The notes: generated by a model not told the origin, from the letters alone. Positions 9,071 to 56,915 are shown, numbered from the stretch's first letter. The stretch is DNA of 64,000 bases from Octopus sinensis (GCF_006345805.1 NC_043001.1:68448001-68512000); one strand, 5' to 3'. Program-made: numbers and translations.

Positions 9071-9139
9071 CGCACCAGCCATCATCACCACCACCTCCAA
9101 ACCCGTCATATATATATATATAATGAGGGTGATAAATTG

Positions 9140-9628
9140 AATATTAATTTACTTAACATCAATTTAAAACCAGTAGCCAAGCATATAGAAAAATCTGAAA
9201 AATTCAAAAAAATTTTATTACATGCGTATAAGAAGGGATGACCACTAAGTGGATATCCAATATGCTAGAAGTAGATCACCTACGATCTGGCCACAAAGAA
9301 AAGATTGTTCTGTAGCAAAATTCAGCAAGCGCCCTAATATAAGCTGGTAAGACAGACGAAAATATATAAAATAAAGAATTAATCGTAGACCGATTTCGCC
9401 ATTAACGACTTTACTTACGTAACACCGTCCATGGACTCTTCAGTACGACCGTTCTAATTCAATATAATTCGCAGAACTGTATACGGATTGTCCTCATAAA
9501 ATTAGACGTGTGTACAATTCTACCGATTACATTGGGTTATTTTCAAATGTCTTAGCTCTGGCGGTTAGATCATAGGTGATCTACTTTTAGCATATTGGAT
9601 GTCCACTTAGTGGTCATCCCCCCTTATA
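9140..9628. mobile_element. PLE-type terminal element with inverted repeats and a hammerhead
   Basis: Inverted arms ~9233-9288 and ~9567-9625 (GATGACCACTAAGTGGATATCCAATATGCTAGAAGTAGATCACCTA), flanked by (TA)n. Confidence 0.65.
9383..9448 (-). ncRNA. Type I hammerhead ribozyme motif (minimal stem III)
   Basis: Minus strand reads UCGUA-CUGAAGA-GUCCAU...AUGGC-GAAA-UCGG-UC-UACGA. Stem I is UCGUA/UACGA; stem III is imperfect. Confidence 0.6.
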
Positions 9629-9691
<63 letters not shown>

Positions 9692-9704
9692 CAAAATGTA
9701 TATA

Positions 9705-9928
9705 TTTATGTGTGTGTGTTTGTGTTTTCTGTCCCGCCACCACAATTGCTTGACAACCAATATTGGGGTGTTTGCGTCCTTGTAACTTAGCTGTTCAGTA
9801 TATGTGACTGATAGAATAAGCACCAACCTTATCGGGAATACATCCAGGGTTCAATTGTTCAACTAAAGGGTGGTGCTCCAGCATTGCTACCGTCAAATGA
9901 CTGAAATAAGTAAAAGAATAAAAGAATA
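9705..9928 (+). mobile_element. SINE family A, 3' half
   Basis: GCTTGACAACC...GGTGCTCCAGCAT...GTCAAATGACTGAAATAAGTAAAAGAATAAAAGAATA tail. Confidence 0.8.
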
Positions 9929-25258: not shown

Positions 25259-26887
25259 CAGTGGCGGCCAAAATGTTCAGAACAGCATTGTTTTCGTCAG
25301 AAAAGTAGATATAATTTTTTATCACAGTTGTTTTATATTCTATAATTTTCACAGACAATAAATACGATATTATTCGTTATTGCCTGAGATTTTGGTGTAA
25401 TTTGAGAGGATAATACAAAAGTTATGGATGATTTAGTGATTTACTGCAAAACCCATGGCGGCCAAAATGATCAGAACGGTTGCTTTTACTCCGTGTTTTA
25501 GTATATTTAACCGGCGAACTCTAATGTTTTGAATTTGTTTACGTGACGGTTCGTTTACTAAACATTAGTAAGAATATTTGAAGTGTACTTTGTTAATATA
25601 ATGCCACTTACTCCGTTACCAATTCGTCAGCAGATTATTAAGCTTCGAAGGAAGGATAATTTAAGTATTGGATCTATTGCAAAGATTGTTAACAAGTCAA
25701 ATGTGTTGTACACGGTATTCTTAAGGTCTACGATGATTGTGGTTCATGTGAATCAAGAAAGTTTACAGGTAGGCCAAGAAAAACGACCAAGAGAGTAGAT
25801 CGTGCTATGGTAAAGTTGATTAAAAAGGACAGATTTAAAACTGCTTCTGCTGTTTCTCGGAAAATGAGCATTGTATTGAAGAAAACTTTCTCTCGAAAAA
25901 CTGTGTCTCGTCGTTTAGTTGAACATGACCTACAAGCAAGAGCACCTGCAGTGAAGCCACTGATCAGCTCCAAGAATAAAAAAGTGTCGTCTTACCTTTG
26001 CAACCGAACATGTGTTGTGGTCTCAAGAAAAATGGCAAACGGTACATTTCAGTGATGAATCTAAGTTTATGTTATTTGGCTCAGATGGGAAAAGGTACGT
26101 TCGTAGAAAAGTAGGTGAAAAATTGTCGCCTAAATGCCTTAAGACTAGTGTTAAATTCGGTGGAGGAAGTGTCATGGTTTGGGGGATGATATCTGGAGAT
26201 GGTGTGGGCCCTTTGGTGCGATTACATGGAAAGGTAAATGCAGGAGTTTATAAACAACTTGTAAAAGATCATGTCTTGCCTGTGCTGAGAAATTCAACTA
26301 AGCGACCACCCATATTCATGCAGGACAATGCTCCATGTCACAAGGCTAAGGTGGTCATGAACTTCCTCAAGGCTGAAAAGGTTATTGTTATGGATTGGCT
26401 TGCTCAAAGCCCAGATCTCAATCCTATTGAAAATGTATGGAATATTCTAGGAGAGCGTTCGAAAGCCAGAAATACTAAAACAACTGAGCAATTATGGAAT
26501 GCCTTTCAGGAAGAATGGAATAAGATCACCCAGCAAGAAATTGAAAATTTAATTTCCTCGTGCAGTCAAAGATGTCAGAGTGTGATTGAAGCTAAAGGGC
26601 TTCACACTAAATATTAAATAATTCCAGTATTCTCTGTCATTTTTGATTATTTTGTTATTTTTTCAACCATTCTGATCATTTTGGCCGCCATGGGTTTTGC
26701 AGTAAATCACTAAATCATCCATAACGTTTGTATTATCCTCTTAAAAGACACCAAAATCTCAGACAATAACAATTAACATTGTATTTATTGTCTGTGAAAA
26801 TTATAGAATATAAAACTACTTTGATAAAAACTTATACTTACTTTTCTGACGAAAACAATGCCGTTCTGAACATTTTGGCCGCAACTG
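25259..26887 (+). mobile_element. Full-length Tc1-like transposon, IR/DR type, TA TSD
   Basis: ~224-bp TIRs (25259-25482 and 26663-26887), each with a direct repeat TGGCGGCCAAAATG(T/A)TCAGAAC at both ends. TA at 25257-58 and 26888-89. Confidence 0.95.
25601..26617 (+). pseudogene. Tc1 DD34E transposase, two frameshifts
   Basis: HTH N-terminus in ORFs 25583 and 25807. Catalytic domain is open in 26012-26617: VHFSDESKF, GGGSVMVWG, FMQDNAPCH, then 34 residues to E in SPDLNPIENVW. Confidence 0.93.
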
Positions 26888-30267: not shown

Positions 30268-30715
30268 TGTCCTCCAATGATCCTCATACACAAACTTTGA
30301 AATTTTTCCACACTTCCGAGGGTGACGCTTGTGGCAGGTCTTCCAGATTGCTCATCGTCTTCCAAGGACGTTCTTCCACTTTTGATGCGCCCGAGCCACT
30401 CGAAACATTGCATCCGACCCATTGCCTCATCGCCGTAAACTTACCGAAGCATGGTCAATGTCTCTGTAGCAGACTTCCCAAGTTTAACGCAAAATTTTCA
30501 CGTTGGCTCATTGTTCTAATTTTCAGTCCACGACAAAATCGCAGATACGTCATCATAAAAATTCAAATTTCACAAATTGCGAAGTAAAGACAGCGATGTC
30601 ACTCGGCACGCTGCTTCATGAAGATCACTGCAAGGTCACATTGCGCACGCAACCGTGTGCTGCCATCTGTTGTTTCGCTACAGAACTCTTCCGGGAACAT
30701 TTTGATACCACCTCG
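30268..30715 (-). mobile_element. Mariner 5' fragment (TIR + N-terminal HTH)
   Basis: KFCVKLGKSATETLTML..VYGDEAMGRMQCFEW..RIKSGRTSLEDDEQSGRP. TIR TA|CGAGGTGGTATCAAAATGTTCCCGGAA. Confidence 0.85.
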
Positions 30716-30819
30716 TATGTATGTATGTATGTATGTATGTATGTATGTATGTATGTATGTATGTATGTATGTATGTATGTATGAATGTATGTATGTATGT
30801 ATATATTGGCACAATATAT

Positions 30820-31245
30820 ATATCAACTTCATCAATAGCACAGTTTTACCTGCAATGTTATATGATAGAAAAAGATGGACTAAATAAAAAAGAACAGAGA
30901 TTGGTAACGTCTCAAGGAACCATGGAGAGGTCAATGTTTGGAATCTCGTTGAGAGAGCACATCAGTAGCGAGGTCATCAGAGAGAAGTCCGGCGTGAGGG
31001 ATGTCATCGCAGAATATACACATAGCAACTTTAGATGGGCTGGACACTTCGCTCGACTCACCGATAATCGGTAGACCCGGGCAGTTGTCGACTGGTACCC
31101 GCGCGAGGGAAAACGACGGTGGAGTTACGATTTCAGGAGGGCGATTGAGATCACGTGGATGAGAAAGGTGCGATCCAGAGAGGAGTGGACAGCGTGCTGA
31201 CAAGCGGTGTCAATGGACGTCCGACGGACTCGTCAGTCAAGGTCA
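30820..31245 (+). mobile_element. RTE-clade LINE 3' fragment
   Basis: NSTVLPAMLY...QGTMERSMFGISLREHISSEVIREKSGVRDVI...FRWAGHFARLTDNR*TRAVVDWYPREGKR. Confidence 0.85.
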
Positions 31246-31388
31246 TATATATATATATATATATATCAACAATCAAGGAACGGCCATAATAGGCCATTCA
31301 CCCACTAGAAATAACAGCCAAAGCTTCAACCGCAAATAAAAATCAATTCCGTAAACAGGAGAAAATTAAAAAAAACATTTACCCTGTA

Positions 31389-31509
31389 ATTTCTTATACG
31401 ATGCACCGTTTCATCTGCTGTTTAATGGTAAACTAACCTGATTAAATTAACCTGATTAAATTAAATCAGGCCAATCTTCCATAGGCCCTCAGATTCTTCA
31501 GTAAGAAAT
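31389..31509 (-). ncRNA. Type I hammerhead ribozyme
   Basis: Reverse complement of the motif at 32577-32682, with a 14-nt duplication in stem II. Confidence 0.85.
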
Positions 31510-31895
31510 AGCCACAAGTCGGAACAGATATTTTCACGAGGCATTTCCGACCCTGCCAAGGTAATATCTGACCTAAAATTTTCAAATCATCGCACTCGCG
31601 CCAAATTTATCGGCAGCAAATAAATATAAGCCGTCGATTCCATTACGGAATTAACCAGAAAATTCATAATTAATCAATATAGGGTGGCAAAAAAAATTTT
31701 GTAGAATTTTTTTGCCACCAGCGGCCTAGTGGGAAAAAATTAAATAGTCATAGACCATTTTTAAGTTCAACATCAACAATCAAGGAACGGCCATAATAGG
31801 CCATTCACCCACTAGAAATAACAGCCAAAGCTTCAACCGCAAATAAAAATCAATTCCGTAAACAGGAGAAAATTTAAAAAAACATTTACCCTGTA

Positions 31896-32002
31896 ATTTC
31901 TTATACGATGCACCGTTTCATCTGCTGTTTAATGGTAAACTAACCTGATTAAATTAAATCAGGCCAATCTTCCATAGGTCCTCAGATTCTTCAGTAAGAA
32001 AT
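31896..32002 (-). ncRNA. Type I hammerhead ribozyme
   Basis: Reverse complement of the motif at 32577-32682; core intact. Confidence 0.85.
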
Positions 32003-32576
32003 AGCCACAAGTCGGAACAGATATTTTCACGAGGCATTTCCGACCCTGCCAAGGTAATATCTGACCTAAAATTTTAAAATCATCGCACTCGCGCCAAATT
32101 TATCGGCAGCAAATAAATATAAGCCGTCGATTCCATTACGGAATTAACCAGAAAATTCATAATTAATCAATATAGGGTGGCAAAAAAAAAATTTTGTAGA
32201 ATTTTTTTGCCACCAGCGGCCTAGTGGGAAAAAATTAAATAGTCATAGACCATTTTTAAGTTCAACATCAACAATCAAGGAACGGCCATAATAGGCCATT
32301 CACCCACTAGAAATAACAGCCAAAGCTTCAACCGCAAATAAAAATCAATTCCGTAAACAGGAGAAAATTTAAAAAAACATTTACCATTTACCATTTTGCC
32401 ACCCTATATTGATTAATTATGAATTTTCTGGTTAATTCCGTAATGGAATCGACGGCTTATATTTATTTGCTGCCGATAAATTTGGCGCGAGTGCGATGAT
32501 TTGAAAATTTTAGGTCAGATATTACCTTGGCAGGGTCGGAAATGCCTCGTGAAAATATCTGTTCCGACTTGTGGCT

Positions 32577-32682
32577 ATTTCTTACTGAAGAATCTGAGGG
32601 CCTATGGAAGATTGGCCTGATTAATTTAATCAGGTTAGTTTACCATTAAACAGCAGATGAAACGGTGCATCGTATAAGAAAT
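32577..32682 (+). ncRNA. Type I hammerhead ribozyme
   Basis: Stem I AUUUCUUA/UAAGAAAU; core CUGAAGA (32585-91); stem II AUCUG...CAGAU with long hairpin extension; GAAA (32659-62); stem III CGGUGCAUCG; GUA cleavage after 32674. Confidence 0.9.
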
Positions 32683-33072
32683 TACAGGGTAAATGTTTTT
32701 TTAAATTTTCTCCTGTTTACGGAATTGATTTTTATTTGCGGTTGAAGCTTTGGCTGTTATTTCTAGTGGGTGAATGGCCTATTATGGCCGTTCCTTGATT
32801 GTTGATGTTGAACTTAAAAATGGTCTATGACTATTTAATTTTTTCCCACTAGGCCGCTGGTGGCAAAAAAATTCTACAAAATTTTTTTTTTTTGCCACCC
32901 TATATTGATTAATTATGAATTTTCTGGTTAATTCCGTAATGGAATCGACGGCTTATATTTATTTGCTGCCGATAAATTTGGCGCGAGTGCGATGATTTTA
33001 AAATTTTAGGTCAGATATTACCTTGGCAGGGTCGGAAATGCCTCGTGAAAATATCTGTTCCGACTTGTGGCT

Positions 33073-33193
33073 ATTTCTTACTGAAGAATCTGAGGGCCTA
33101 TGGAAGATTGGCCTGATTTAATTTAATCAGGTTAATTTAATCAGGTTAGTTTACCATTAAACAGCAGATGAAACGGTGCATCGTATAAGAAAT
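33073..33193 (+). ncRNA. Type I hammerhead ribozyme
   Basis: Same motif with a 14-nt duplication in stem II; predicted cleavage after 33185. Confidence 0.88.
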
Positions 33194-33582
33194 TACAGGG
33201 TAAATGTTTTTTTAAATTTTCTCCTGTTTACGGAATTGATTTTTATTTGCGTTGAAGCTTTGGCTGTTATTTCTAGTGGGTGAATGGCCTATTATGGCCG
33301 TTCCTTGATTGTTGATGTTGAACTTAAAAATGGTCTATGACTATTTAATTTTTTCCCACTAGGCCGCTGGTGGCAAAAAAATTCTACAAAATTTTTTTTT
33401 TTTGCCACCCTATATTGATTAATTATGAATTTTCTTGTTAATTCCGTAATGGAATCGACGGCTTATATTTATTTGCTGCCGATAAATTTGGCGCGAGTGC
33501 GATGATTTGAAAATTTTAGGTCAGATATTACCTTGGCAGGGTCGGAAATGCCTCGTGAAAATATCTGTTCCGACTTGTGGCT

Positions 33583-33688
33583 ATTTCTTACTGAAGAATC
33601 TGAGGGCCTATGGAAGATTGGCCTGATTTATTTAATCAGGTTAGTTTACCATTAAACAGCAGATGAAACGGTGCATCGTATAAAAAAT
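33583..33688 (+). ncRNA. Type I hammerhead ribozyme (one stem I mismatch)
   Basis: Same motif; the 3' stem I strand is UAAAAAAU; predicted cleavage after 33680. Confidence 0.8.
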
Positions 33689-33915
33689 TACAGGTAAATG
33701 TTTTTTTAAATTTTCTCCTGTTTACGGAATTGATTTTTATTTGCGGTTGAAGCTTTGGCTGTTATTTCTAGTGGGTGAATGGCCTATTATGGCCGTTCCT
33801 TGATTGTTGATGTTGAACTTAAAAATGGTCTATGACTATTTAATTTTTTCCCACTAGGCCGCTGGTGGCAAAAAAATTCTACAAAATTTTTTTTTGCCAC
33901 CCTATATTGATTAAT

Positions 33916-33955
<40 letters not shown>

Positions 33956-33964
33956 ATATATATA

Positions 33965-34043
<79 letters not shown>

Positions 34044-34145
34044 AATAAGTCCTAGGGTGGATTTGTTCGACTGAAGGCGGTGCTCCAGCATGAGCGCAGT
34101 CAAATGACTGAAACAATTAAAACAATAAAAGAGTAAAAGAGAATA
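34044..34145 (+). mobile_element. SINE family A 3' end, duplicated together with its flank
   Basis: Tail plus the downstream CAATCCCACCCATATTCATA recurs at 34645-34780. Confidence 0.85.
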
Positions 34146-55400: not shown

Positions 55401-55599
55401 TACATACAACACTCTCTTTTAGTCTCGCAACCCCATTAACACTTACACACCTCCATGTCAATTTTCTCTCTTTCACTTTATCCTGACACCAAACTTAAAT
55501 GTTTTACGGATTTTACCGAACGCTATATCTTAACAGCTTTTGGATCAAATGTTTACTTGGACATTTTGCGAGCCATATCGAAAGATCGCCTAATTTCGT

Positions 55600-56915
55600 C
55601 CTCGGAAACACCTACAGACACACTGGCGGAATCATCTTCTTAGACGCACCCGGTGGAACTGGAAAAACATACCTCCTTCTTCTTGTGAAGTTACGGCATA
55701 ACCGTGACCTTGCTATTGTTGTTGCCTCTTCAGAAATAGCCTCGACTCTTCTCGATGGCAGACGAACAGCAAACTCTGCCTTCAGATTGCCTTTCAATGT
55801 AGCACATCAAGAAAACCCAATGTACCACATAATGCATTCCTCGGACGAAGCGACAATTGTGAAAAAGTGCAAACTCATTGTTTGGGATGAAGCAACTATG
55901 TCCCATAAATGTTCCCTACAACATACTACAGTTAGAGTCCTTATATCCAACAACAACATCCTAGGACATGCGATTCTACTTCTTGCAGGAGACTCTACTT
56001 TCTTGCGACTCCTTGCAGGAGATTTTCGACAAAGGAACATCCGCTGATGAACATAATACCTACCTTCAAAAATCCCTTCTTTGGTCGTATATCCAATCGA
56101 AACAATTCACTATTAACATGAGATCTCTCCTATAGACTGGTCAGCCAATAACCCAGTTTCGGAAATGCTCCTTAAAATCGGCAATGGACAAATTATATCC
56201 GATGACAACGGATACATTGACGCTACCACCATTGGCCACACTGAATCTAGCCCTGATGATTTACGTTCTGTCGTTTACCAAAATCTTACAACGGAATGCA
56301 TAAAACCAGATTAGCTTCGTGACAGGGCTGTTCTTGCACCTACAAATGCAGCTGTCAACACTCTTAACTTACTGAGTCAGCTATCTTCTCAAGAATGTTG
56401 TTACAGATCAGTTGACACCGTTACAGACCTCGATGAGTTTACACAATTTCTACCAGAATTTCTCAACTTCCAAGATCCTCCAGAACTCCCTCCCCATGAA
56501 CTCCACTTAAAAGTCGGTTGCTCTGTCATCCTCCTACGCAATCTAAACGCACCCACACCATTCAATGGCACTCGCCTTGTGGTCAAACAAAAGATGAACC
56601 ACGCCATTGAAGCCCAAATTATCACGGGACAGCAATAAGGATACCAATTTTATTCTGAAAATTCTGCTAACCCCAATAGAATGCTCCTACCCTATGTAGA
56701 GACTTCAATTCCATCTGAAACTCACCTTCACCATAGCAATTAACAAAGCACAAAGTCACTCGCTGAAATTTGTCGGATTAGACCTTCGAACATCGTGCTT
56801 TTCACATGGACAGTTCTACGTCGGTTGTTCCAGAGTTGGTCATCCAGATAACTTATTCATCTATGCTCCTGAAGGAAAAACAAAGAATGCCGTCTTCAAA
56901 GCAGCCCTACATCAG
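55600..56915 (+). pseudogene. Helitron PIF1-like SF1 helicase, degenerate
   Basis: FLDAPGGTGKTY (Walker A), LIVWDEATM (Walker B), LAGDFRQ, RAVLAPTN, PPHELHLKVGCSVILLRNL..NGTRL, INKAQ, FSHGQFYVGCSRV, KTKNAVF. Confidence 0.93.

Follow-up and report, generated by a model that had tools for sequence, protein, structure and literature searches.

A head-to-head array of hammerhead ribozymes in Octopus sinensis as a probable single insertion of a non-LTR retrozyme

Background

Near the middle of a 64,000-nucleotide stretch of the Octopus sinensis genome [GCF_006345805.1 NC_043001.1:68448001-68512000], which as a whole is called the window here, hammerhead ribozymes are found on both strands of an array that is close to palindromic. 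Is this a special bidirectional locus, as an initial annotation of the window proposed, or is it an assembly error, or the ordinary product of a mobile element? And, if an element inserted here, what kind of RNA served as its template?

Non-LTR retrozymes have been argued to be non-autonomous Penelope-like elements (PLEs) (Li 2026, bioRxiv 10.64898/2026.07.22.740005), and opposite-strand hammerhead pairs have already been recorded (Cervera 2014). PLE insertions, as part of Craig 2021 (PMC8557442) describes them, include partial tandems, an inverted 5'-truncated copy, a tail of 30–40 bp that is often at one end only, and microsatellite targets with a (TA)n bias; a linker is described there for Neptune, Nematis and Naiad. 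One PLE protein, a predicted dimer, has been shown to cut both strands and extend them; it begins reverse transcription at two positions inside the RNA, and these set the limits of the tail. In vitro the start site was alike on both strands, with no difference seen, and insertion proceeded without a hammerhead (Frangieh 2024, PMC11167929). Here we investigate the array, the family to which it belongs and the manner in which the family may be mobilized.

Results

Structure of the array

The array is made of units of about 495 bp in two head-to-head arms, and (TA)n is found on both outer sides. Its parts are as follows, with unit coordinates obtained as the window position minus 32393.

31245..31264, no strand: left (TA)n target tract, read from sequence
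31265..32385, minus strand: left arm of 2.26 tandem units, with its 5' end (unit position 295) central and its 3' end at the fixed site E1 (unit position 413)
32386..32393, no strand: head-to-head junction, an 8-nt insert that is a repeat of 32379-32385 plus A
32394..33918, plus strand: right arm of 3.08 tandem units, with its 5' end central (unit position ~1, the T-run of hairpin B) and its 3' end at the fixed site E2 (unit position 27)
32715..32943, plus strand: predicted 3' module of the unit (one copy), with an enclosing helix, hairpin A and hairpin B, from fold prediction and conservation in sister families
33812..33918, plus strand: PLE-type 'tail' between both fixed 3' ends, 107 bp here and ~110 nt in the unit, present on a single arm only
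33919..34047, no strand: right (TA)n target tract, read from sequence

Read from 32385 to 31265, the minus arm runs through unit positions 295-496, then 1-496, then 1-413; the plus arm, from 32394 to 33918, has three units followed by unit positions 1-27. The coordinates and the copy numbers (2.26 and 3.08) agree with the two arms, central junction, small duplication and flanking (TA)n that had been annotated. The insert at 32386..32393 is probably of the templated-insertion type of end joining. The arms are 96–100% complementary and there is no ORF of at least 60 aa inside the array. E1 lies at 32806, ~16 nt downstream of hairpin A, and E2 at 32916, ~17 nt downstream of hairpin B, so that each is preceded by a predicted hairpin at about 12–17 nt. 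From this modelled fold the 3' module is a candidate region for reverse transcriptase (RT) recognition and start.

A dispersed family

The exact 29-nt ribozyme core has 654 copies in the genome, and its reversed control has none. This genome-wide count, one of the checks proposed with the initial annotation, makes the array a member of a dispersed family, here called F1. The best F1 copies are 95–99% identical, the GC content of the unit is 35%, and head-to-tail runs of the unit reach 17.6 copies and contain no ORF. Fifty stretches were examined: 35 loci came from an initial search and 14 stretches from a second one, for which the query was shortened, and the window is the fiftieth. Loci were chosen for their high scores (39 of 835 and 40 of 1228 candidates scored), which biases the sample towards young, long copies. 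On C16, unit copies span about 18 kb, and both of the 5-kb ends examined consist of array. This apparently continuous array of ~18 kb or more (L173 and L174; C16:42580166 to beyond 42598500) is a candidate source array.

Two sister families share the layout. F2, first met in the flank of another locus, has a unit of 470 bp that is 68% identical to F1 over the unit, a tail of ~98 nt and the same two ends (L118-L142; L048:1-345). It is older, with 88–97% identity among copies and 70 exact core copies. F3 is more distant, with a 535-bp unit and a tail of 130 nt, and one insertion of it was seen (L088/L094, one duplicated locus).

As had been proposed, F1 is on its sequence a metazoan non-LTR retrozyme with a type I hammerhead, being non-coding, tandem and dispersed, with a hammerhead in consecutive units and GC below 50%. 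Its unit had been thought unusually large; retrozyme consensus lengths of 51–972 bp (Li, Clavereau and Pollet 2026, bioRxiv 10.64898/2026.07.22.740005) do not bear this out. The locus itself is ordinary, one among hundreds of copies of a known kind of element, and the family is of moderate interest. In a literature search that lay outside Repbase/Dfam, subscription papers and supplements, no paper was found on the F1 family, on cephalopod retrozymes or on head-to-head retrozyme insertions.

Hammerhead ribozymes

Five type I hammerheads are present in the array, three on the plus strand and two on the minus strand.

32577..32682, plus strand: type I hammerhead, intact; predicted cut after 32674
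33073..33193, plus strand: type I hammerhead, intact, with a 14-bp duplication in the stem II insert; predicted cut after 33185
33583..33688, plus strand: type I hammerhead with a C.A mismatch in stem I; predicted cut after 33680
31896..32002, minus strand: type I hammerhead, intact; H17 at 31904
31389..31509, minus strand: type I hammerhead, intact, with the 14-bp duplication; H17 at 31397

All five had been annotated as intact, which is true of four; the copy at 33680 has the stem I mismatch and was missed by our descriptor. The cleavage-site spacings that had been given (511, 495 and 507) are correct, as are the new 5' ends at 32675, 33186 and 33681. Each ribozyme has the core CUGANGA, GAAA and UH, three flanking helices and an open-ended stem I, which places it in type I. 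Stem I, as described before and as read from the sequence, is of 8 bp with a 4-bp extension beyond a GCU bulge. Stem II is of 5 bp and bears a structured insert of 57–72 nt. Stem III is indeed quasi-palindromic, being formed by the near-palindrome CGGUGCAUCG; it is weakly predicted in the monomer (pair probability ≤0.15), and the cleavage site is GUA. The 10.1-11.1 pair, usually G-C in the canonical hammerhead, is A10.1-U11.1.

As a control for chance, the descriptor was applied to 2000 dinucleotide shuffles of the unit, none of which matched at any of three thresholds; the fold z-scores are -4.3 and -4.4. One intact hammerhead pattern is common to 119 of the 209 copies scanned, and the antisense strand of the unit has no hammerhead core. 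The Rfam search that had been suggested returned no hammerhead at gathering score and, at E≤10, chance-level matches only. The Rfam models thus overlook this family, probably because of the long stem II insert. Between F1 and F2, 7 of the 15 ribozyme base pairs are changed on both sides while the catalytic core is kept; slid controls gave 0–1. This supports selection on the hammerhead fold, as far as a comparison of two lineages can, and we attach no probability to it.

An A.C mismatch at the base of stem II is present in the hammerheads of 7 of the 50 stretches (L044, L048, L053, L054, L056, L058 and L061), where it marks a recently spread sub-lineage. These stretches are young nonetheless, so efficient cleavage may not be needed. 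Among Xenopus retrozyme dimers, 1 of 9 was cleaved in vitro (Li 2026).

Insertion ends and head-to-head junctions

If the array is the product of insertion, other copies should show where insertion starts and stops. The 3' ends of 83 arms could be read: 43 are at E1 (unit position ~413), 38 at E2 (~27 of the next unit) and 2 elsewhere, one of which (L034) was read as 27 in a separate end reading. A TA-rich flank adjoins 81 of the 83. Head-to-head insertions number 34 among the 50 stretches, and 32 of these (17+15) pair an E1 arm with an E2 arm; no same-end pair occurs, and the other two are off-site or cut by a contig edge. In the second set, found with the shorter query, the pairing is one of each in 7/7. 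Arms are 60–8709 bp long, and 77 of 85 traverse at least one cleavage site. The inner ends vary. At the 34 junctions the arms overlap by 1–27 nt in 22 cases, are joined bluntly in 1 and are separated by 2–12 extra nt in 11. The L055 insertion is duplicated, and only one of its copies was used; L173 and L174 were left out of the 5'-end counts. BLAST pieces of <40 nt or <88% identity were discarded, so that very short second arms are invisible.

With 34 head-to-head insertions and varying inner ends, the palindrome is the family's usual shape, and what had been presented as a special bidirectional locus has the routine head-to-head form of a PLE insertion. From geometry alone, transcription of either strand is predicted to release the monomer, and read-through to give >1 kb of dsRNA. 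Could the array have been selected for this, as a device whose two strands both give rise to the same circle, or as a trigger in the form of long dsRNA? Its three hammerheads on the plus strand, two on the minus strand and highly complementary arms would suit such a role. That the same geometry occurs in 34 insertions with random inner ends speaks against it; moreover, no host exon was found, and Pfam matches, present in 4 of the 97 ORFs scanned (119 listed), are all transposon-type. We consider this barely credible.

Even less probability, next to none, is left for an inversion created by assembly or by long-read fold-back. In its favour, none of the contigs examined covers the entire stretch or bridges the window's own junction, and homopolymer errors are common among the copies. 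The two arms, however, differ in their fixed end site and in their start, which a fold-back read cannot yield, and the initial annotation was right to set this explanation aside. In addition, many other minus-to-plus joints are present, at a depth of ~33, in contigs of run X15, possibly the sample that was assembled; one of these joints also occurs in X16.

The mirror arm might instead have arisen within the cell, if a monomer inserted and was amplified locally as a satellite, with the second arm made when the first cDNA folded back and primed itself, or in a rearrangement at a later time. Self-priming has been proposed for PLE inverted repeats (Arkhipova 2013, PMC3846280), local amplification has been proposed for retrozymes (Li 2026), and one junction, in L035, is palindromic. 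Fold-back should leave the short arm starting close to the start of the long arm, yet the short arm starts ≤40 nt downstream of the long arm's start in 1 of 32 insertions (2.6 expected by chance), and the offsets are compatible with a uniform distribution (KS P 0.19). Nor is one arm consistently the first, the E1 arm being the longer in 14 of 32, and the outer ends are both at fixed priming-type sites adjoining (TA)n. The arm-start offsets largely refute a fold-back origin of the mirror arm, and we regard this history as very unlikely. The data agree better with priming that occurred twice, independently, once on either side of a cut.

The insertions have 5' truncation, an inverted head-to-head copy, a one-sided tail and a microsatellite target. 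This is the signature of PLE insertion, and the link to PLEs made in the initial annotation stands. By analogy, E1 and E2 would correspond to the two internal RT start sites known for the PLE protein. The 5' ends are not all dispersed: 13 of 83 are at the T-run of hairpin B, and 11 of 83 are within positions 278-295, around the cut at 281/282, against 3 expected (scan-corrected P 0.03, for a window picked post hoc). This second cluster may have formed because the RT ran off a cleaved end or stalled at stem I.

Variants within and between insertions

What was the template? Across 164 pieces from 36 loci, with four alignment-ambiguous columns excluded, opposite arms of one locus differ at 1.38 variable sites on average, against 3.90 between loci. 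For the 19 two-armed loci, such similarity was reached in 0 of 2000 permutations. Variants private to one locus are fixed in every covering unit of both arms in L045 (10/10), L051, L052, L059 and L060. Most arms pass through the cleavage site, and the longest has 17.6 units; a linear monomer released by cleavage and copied a single time cannot give rise to such arms. The homogeneity of the arms within a locus is what repeated copying of one monomer, hypothesised earlier (Cervera and de la Pena 2020, PMC7229834), would predict; it would also be compatible with an unsampled homogeneous source array.

The window array is an exception. Its non-mirror variants, reported in the initial annotation, were confirmed: two of its five units bear the 14-bp duplication and two bear the position-110 change, and the two pairs of units are not the same. 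One monomer template does not explain this mosaic, and the array of L043 is likewise mixed. A heterodimer circle was considered as the template of the window array and does not fit, since the two variant sites show all four combinations.

Mosaic units would fit a mixed multimer as template, and this favours an alternative in which the same element, with the same PLE machinery, was copied from linear, uncut RNA made by read-through transcription of an existing homogeneous array, the hammerhead being inherited and unneeded for spread. Long source arrays exist, the stem II mismatch variant has spread, the hammerhead was dispensable for PLE insertion in vitro (PMC11167929), and non-autonomous PLEs of Chlamys that lack a ribozyme also insert as head-to-tail multicopies (PMC8557442). 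Against this, there are many haplotypes, each fixed over both arms of its locus, which implies repeated bottlenecks of one monomer. Hammerhead stems are maintained by compensatory changes between families, and there is the excess of 5' ends near the cut, with the post hoc reservation given above. We judge a linear template rather unlikely.

Relationship to Penelope-like elements

Is there a PLE in this genome that could mobilize F1? Candidates were found by GIY-YIG and single-protein searches, with the best 150 of 5029 and the best 120 of 18500 scored. Two young autonomous families, each with many near-identical intact copies, were observed: L088/L091/L093/L095, and L089/L157-L160 (family B). 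Both have an upstream ORF of ~450–480 aa, an RT + GIY-YIG ORF of 775–781 aa, (TA)n at their ends, and two ends whose separation is 40 nt in one family and 45 nt in the other. An insertion of family B, L157, has one of each end. By eye only, the distal end of family B and E2 of F1-F3 have a short CACCC-then-AT motif in common.

When 70 PLE stretches (67 distinct loci) were compared with the unit, the only matches were of ≤36 nt at E≥0.025, and no similar pLTR was found. Smith-Waterman comparison of the 3' regions gave no sense-strand score over the shuffle maximum among the 17 listed of 23. The array also lacks the RT + GIY-YIG ORF between pLTRs by which an autonomous PLE is recognized, and in the 49 non-window stretches scanned none of the arms is contiguous with a PLE ORF. 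PLE fragments near L055, L166 and L171 are set apart from the arrays by (TA)n and other DNA. L175, which has irregular spacing, proved to be a duplicated insertion broken up by other repeats, with no PLE ORF.

These comparisons bear on whether the units are mere pLTR remnants left by 5' truncation of an autonomous PLE. The pLTRs of PLEs do bear type I hammerheads, and Xenopus retrozymes resemble pLTRs (Li 2026; Cervera 2014, in part). Head-to-tail repeats of up to 17.6 units without an ORF are not what such truncation would leave, however, and neither a joined ORF nor 3' similarity to the screened PLEs was found; as the initial annotation had supposed, these are not the pLTRs of an adjacent ORF. 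A remnant origin is thus highly improbable.

Transcripts and other elements

In the presumed-RNA runs X1 and X5, contigs cover parts of the unit or one whole unit (521 nt, depth 6, X5); these are uninformative on strand, ends, circles and expression. The octamer TTGGCGCG, which we take to resemble an E2F-type site, is kept in F1 (window 32451-32486 region, unit position ~85-95), F2 (L120) and F3 (L088), 49–61 nt after E2. It occurs only five times in the window, matching the five unit copies, and is a candidate internal promoter.

A second hammerhead-like motif is located on the minus strand at window 9100-9720, with stems of 7, 3 and 2 bp, CUGA at 9443 and H17 at 9388. It sits in an element of ~530 bp between (TA)n tracts with a 70-bp inverted repeat, which is probably another small PLE-derived family. 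Further small hammerhead elements near (TA)n were seen at L088:6650-8070, L089:6900-8300, L094:1350, L104:1484, L143:5228 and L155:1815, many with stem II inserts of 50–60 nt, and the genome seems rich in retrozyme families. Elsewhere in the window (25693-26614, 30706-31245 and 55499-56635) are pieces of Tc1/mariner-type transposase and of PIF1 helicase, the latter presumably Helitron-like. Immediately left of the array ends a LINE-like C-terminal fragment that has no Pfam match and that resembles the RTE type.

Discussion

Proposed insertion mechanism

The reading that best accounts for the sequence comparisons, to which we give a probability of roughly 0.7, is that the array arose by one insertion event of a young non-LTR retrozyme. 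This non-coding element of ~495 bp would have been moved in trans by an endonuclease-bearing PLE, from a circular or end-joined monomer template. Tandem copies would first be transcribed and their hammerheads would release monomers of ~495 nt, which would be circularized by ligation or kept in end-to-end contact through stem I. The PLE protein would then cut both strands of a (TA)n tract and prime reverse transcription from both DNA ends; the end patterns and the published PLE biochemistry suggest this step. The starts, E1 and E2, would lie inside the RNA, ~110 nt apart, with one DNA end taking E1 and the other E2. How often each RT goes around the monomer may vary, and the resulting arms would be tandem and homogeneous. 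Finally, the independently truncated 5' ends are joined with microhomology or short inserts, a pattern seen directly at the junctions, presumably by the corresponding end-joining enzymes. With insertion of this two-sided kind, the palindrome and the hammerheads on both strands are products of insertion.

How is the strict use of one E1 and one E2 brought about? One tentative answer, for which we would offer somewhat less than even odds, is that a single PLE RT/endonuclease dimer binds one circular retrozyme RNA asymmetrically, its subunits starting at E1 and E2 from opposite ends of the double-strand cut in (TA)n and copying by rolling circle. If this dimer reading is true, F1-F3 would be a retrozyme superfamily with long tails (98–130 nt), whose DNA preserves a record of the circular RNA from which animal retrozymes are copied and of how the tail and inverted repeat of PLEs come about.

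The family has a bearing on two questions. Do PLE proteins move animal retrozymes via circular templates, as has so far been proposed (Li 2026; PMC7229834)? And how do the inverted arms and one-sided tails of PLEs arise (PMC11167929, PMC8557442)? The RNA is of 495 nt, its two start sites are mapped, their pairing is strict, and the same genome encodes intact candidate helper proteins, which makes both questions directly testable in the existing in vitro PLE assay.

Comparison with known systems

Like the metazoan non-LTR retrozymes (PMC7229834; Li 2026), F1 is non-coding and tandem, has one type I hammerhead per unit and low GC, is dispersed as dimers to multimers, and co-occurs with PLEs. Unlike those elements as described, it has resolved ends, with head-to-head arms, two fixed 3' ends and a (TA)n target, its stem II insert is long, and its hammerhead goes unrecognized by the Rfam models. 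A term search of the main text of PMC7229834 and Li 2026 found no description of inverted arms or tails.

With the non-autonomous PLEs of Chlamys, such as MRC1, F1 shares non-autonomy and multicopy head-to-tail insertions. In the parts of PMC8557442 that treat them, those elements resemble autonomous partners at the 3' end and most are without hammerheads; no such partner was found for F1.

The likeness to EN+ PLEs of the Neptune/Naiad type (PMC8557442, PMC3846280, PMC11167929) extends to partial tandems, the inverted truncated copy, the one-sided tail, the microsatellite target and two RT starts, and a hammerhead upstream of the 3' end is common to both. Unlike EN+ PLEs, F1-F3 have no ORF, their arms are concatemers of whole units, and E1 and E2 are strictly paired (32/32 readable). 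Their tails are of ~110 nt in F1, ~98 in F2 and 130 in F3, in contrast to the 30–40 bp described for PLEs in part of PMC8557442 and the 40–45 nt of the autonomous families in the same genome.
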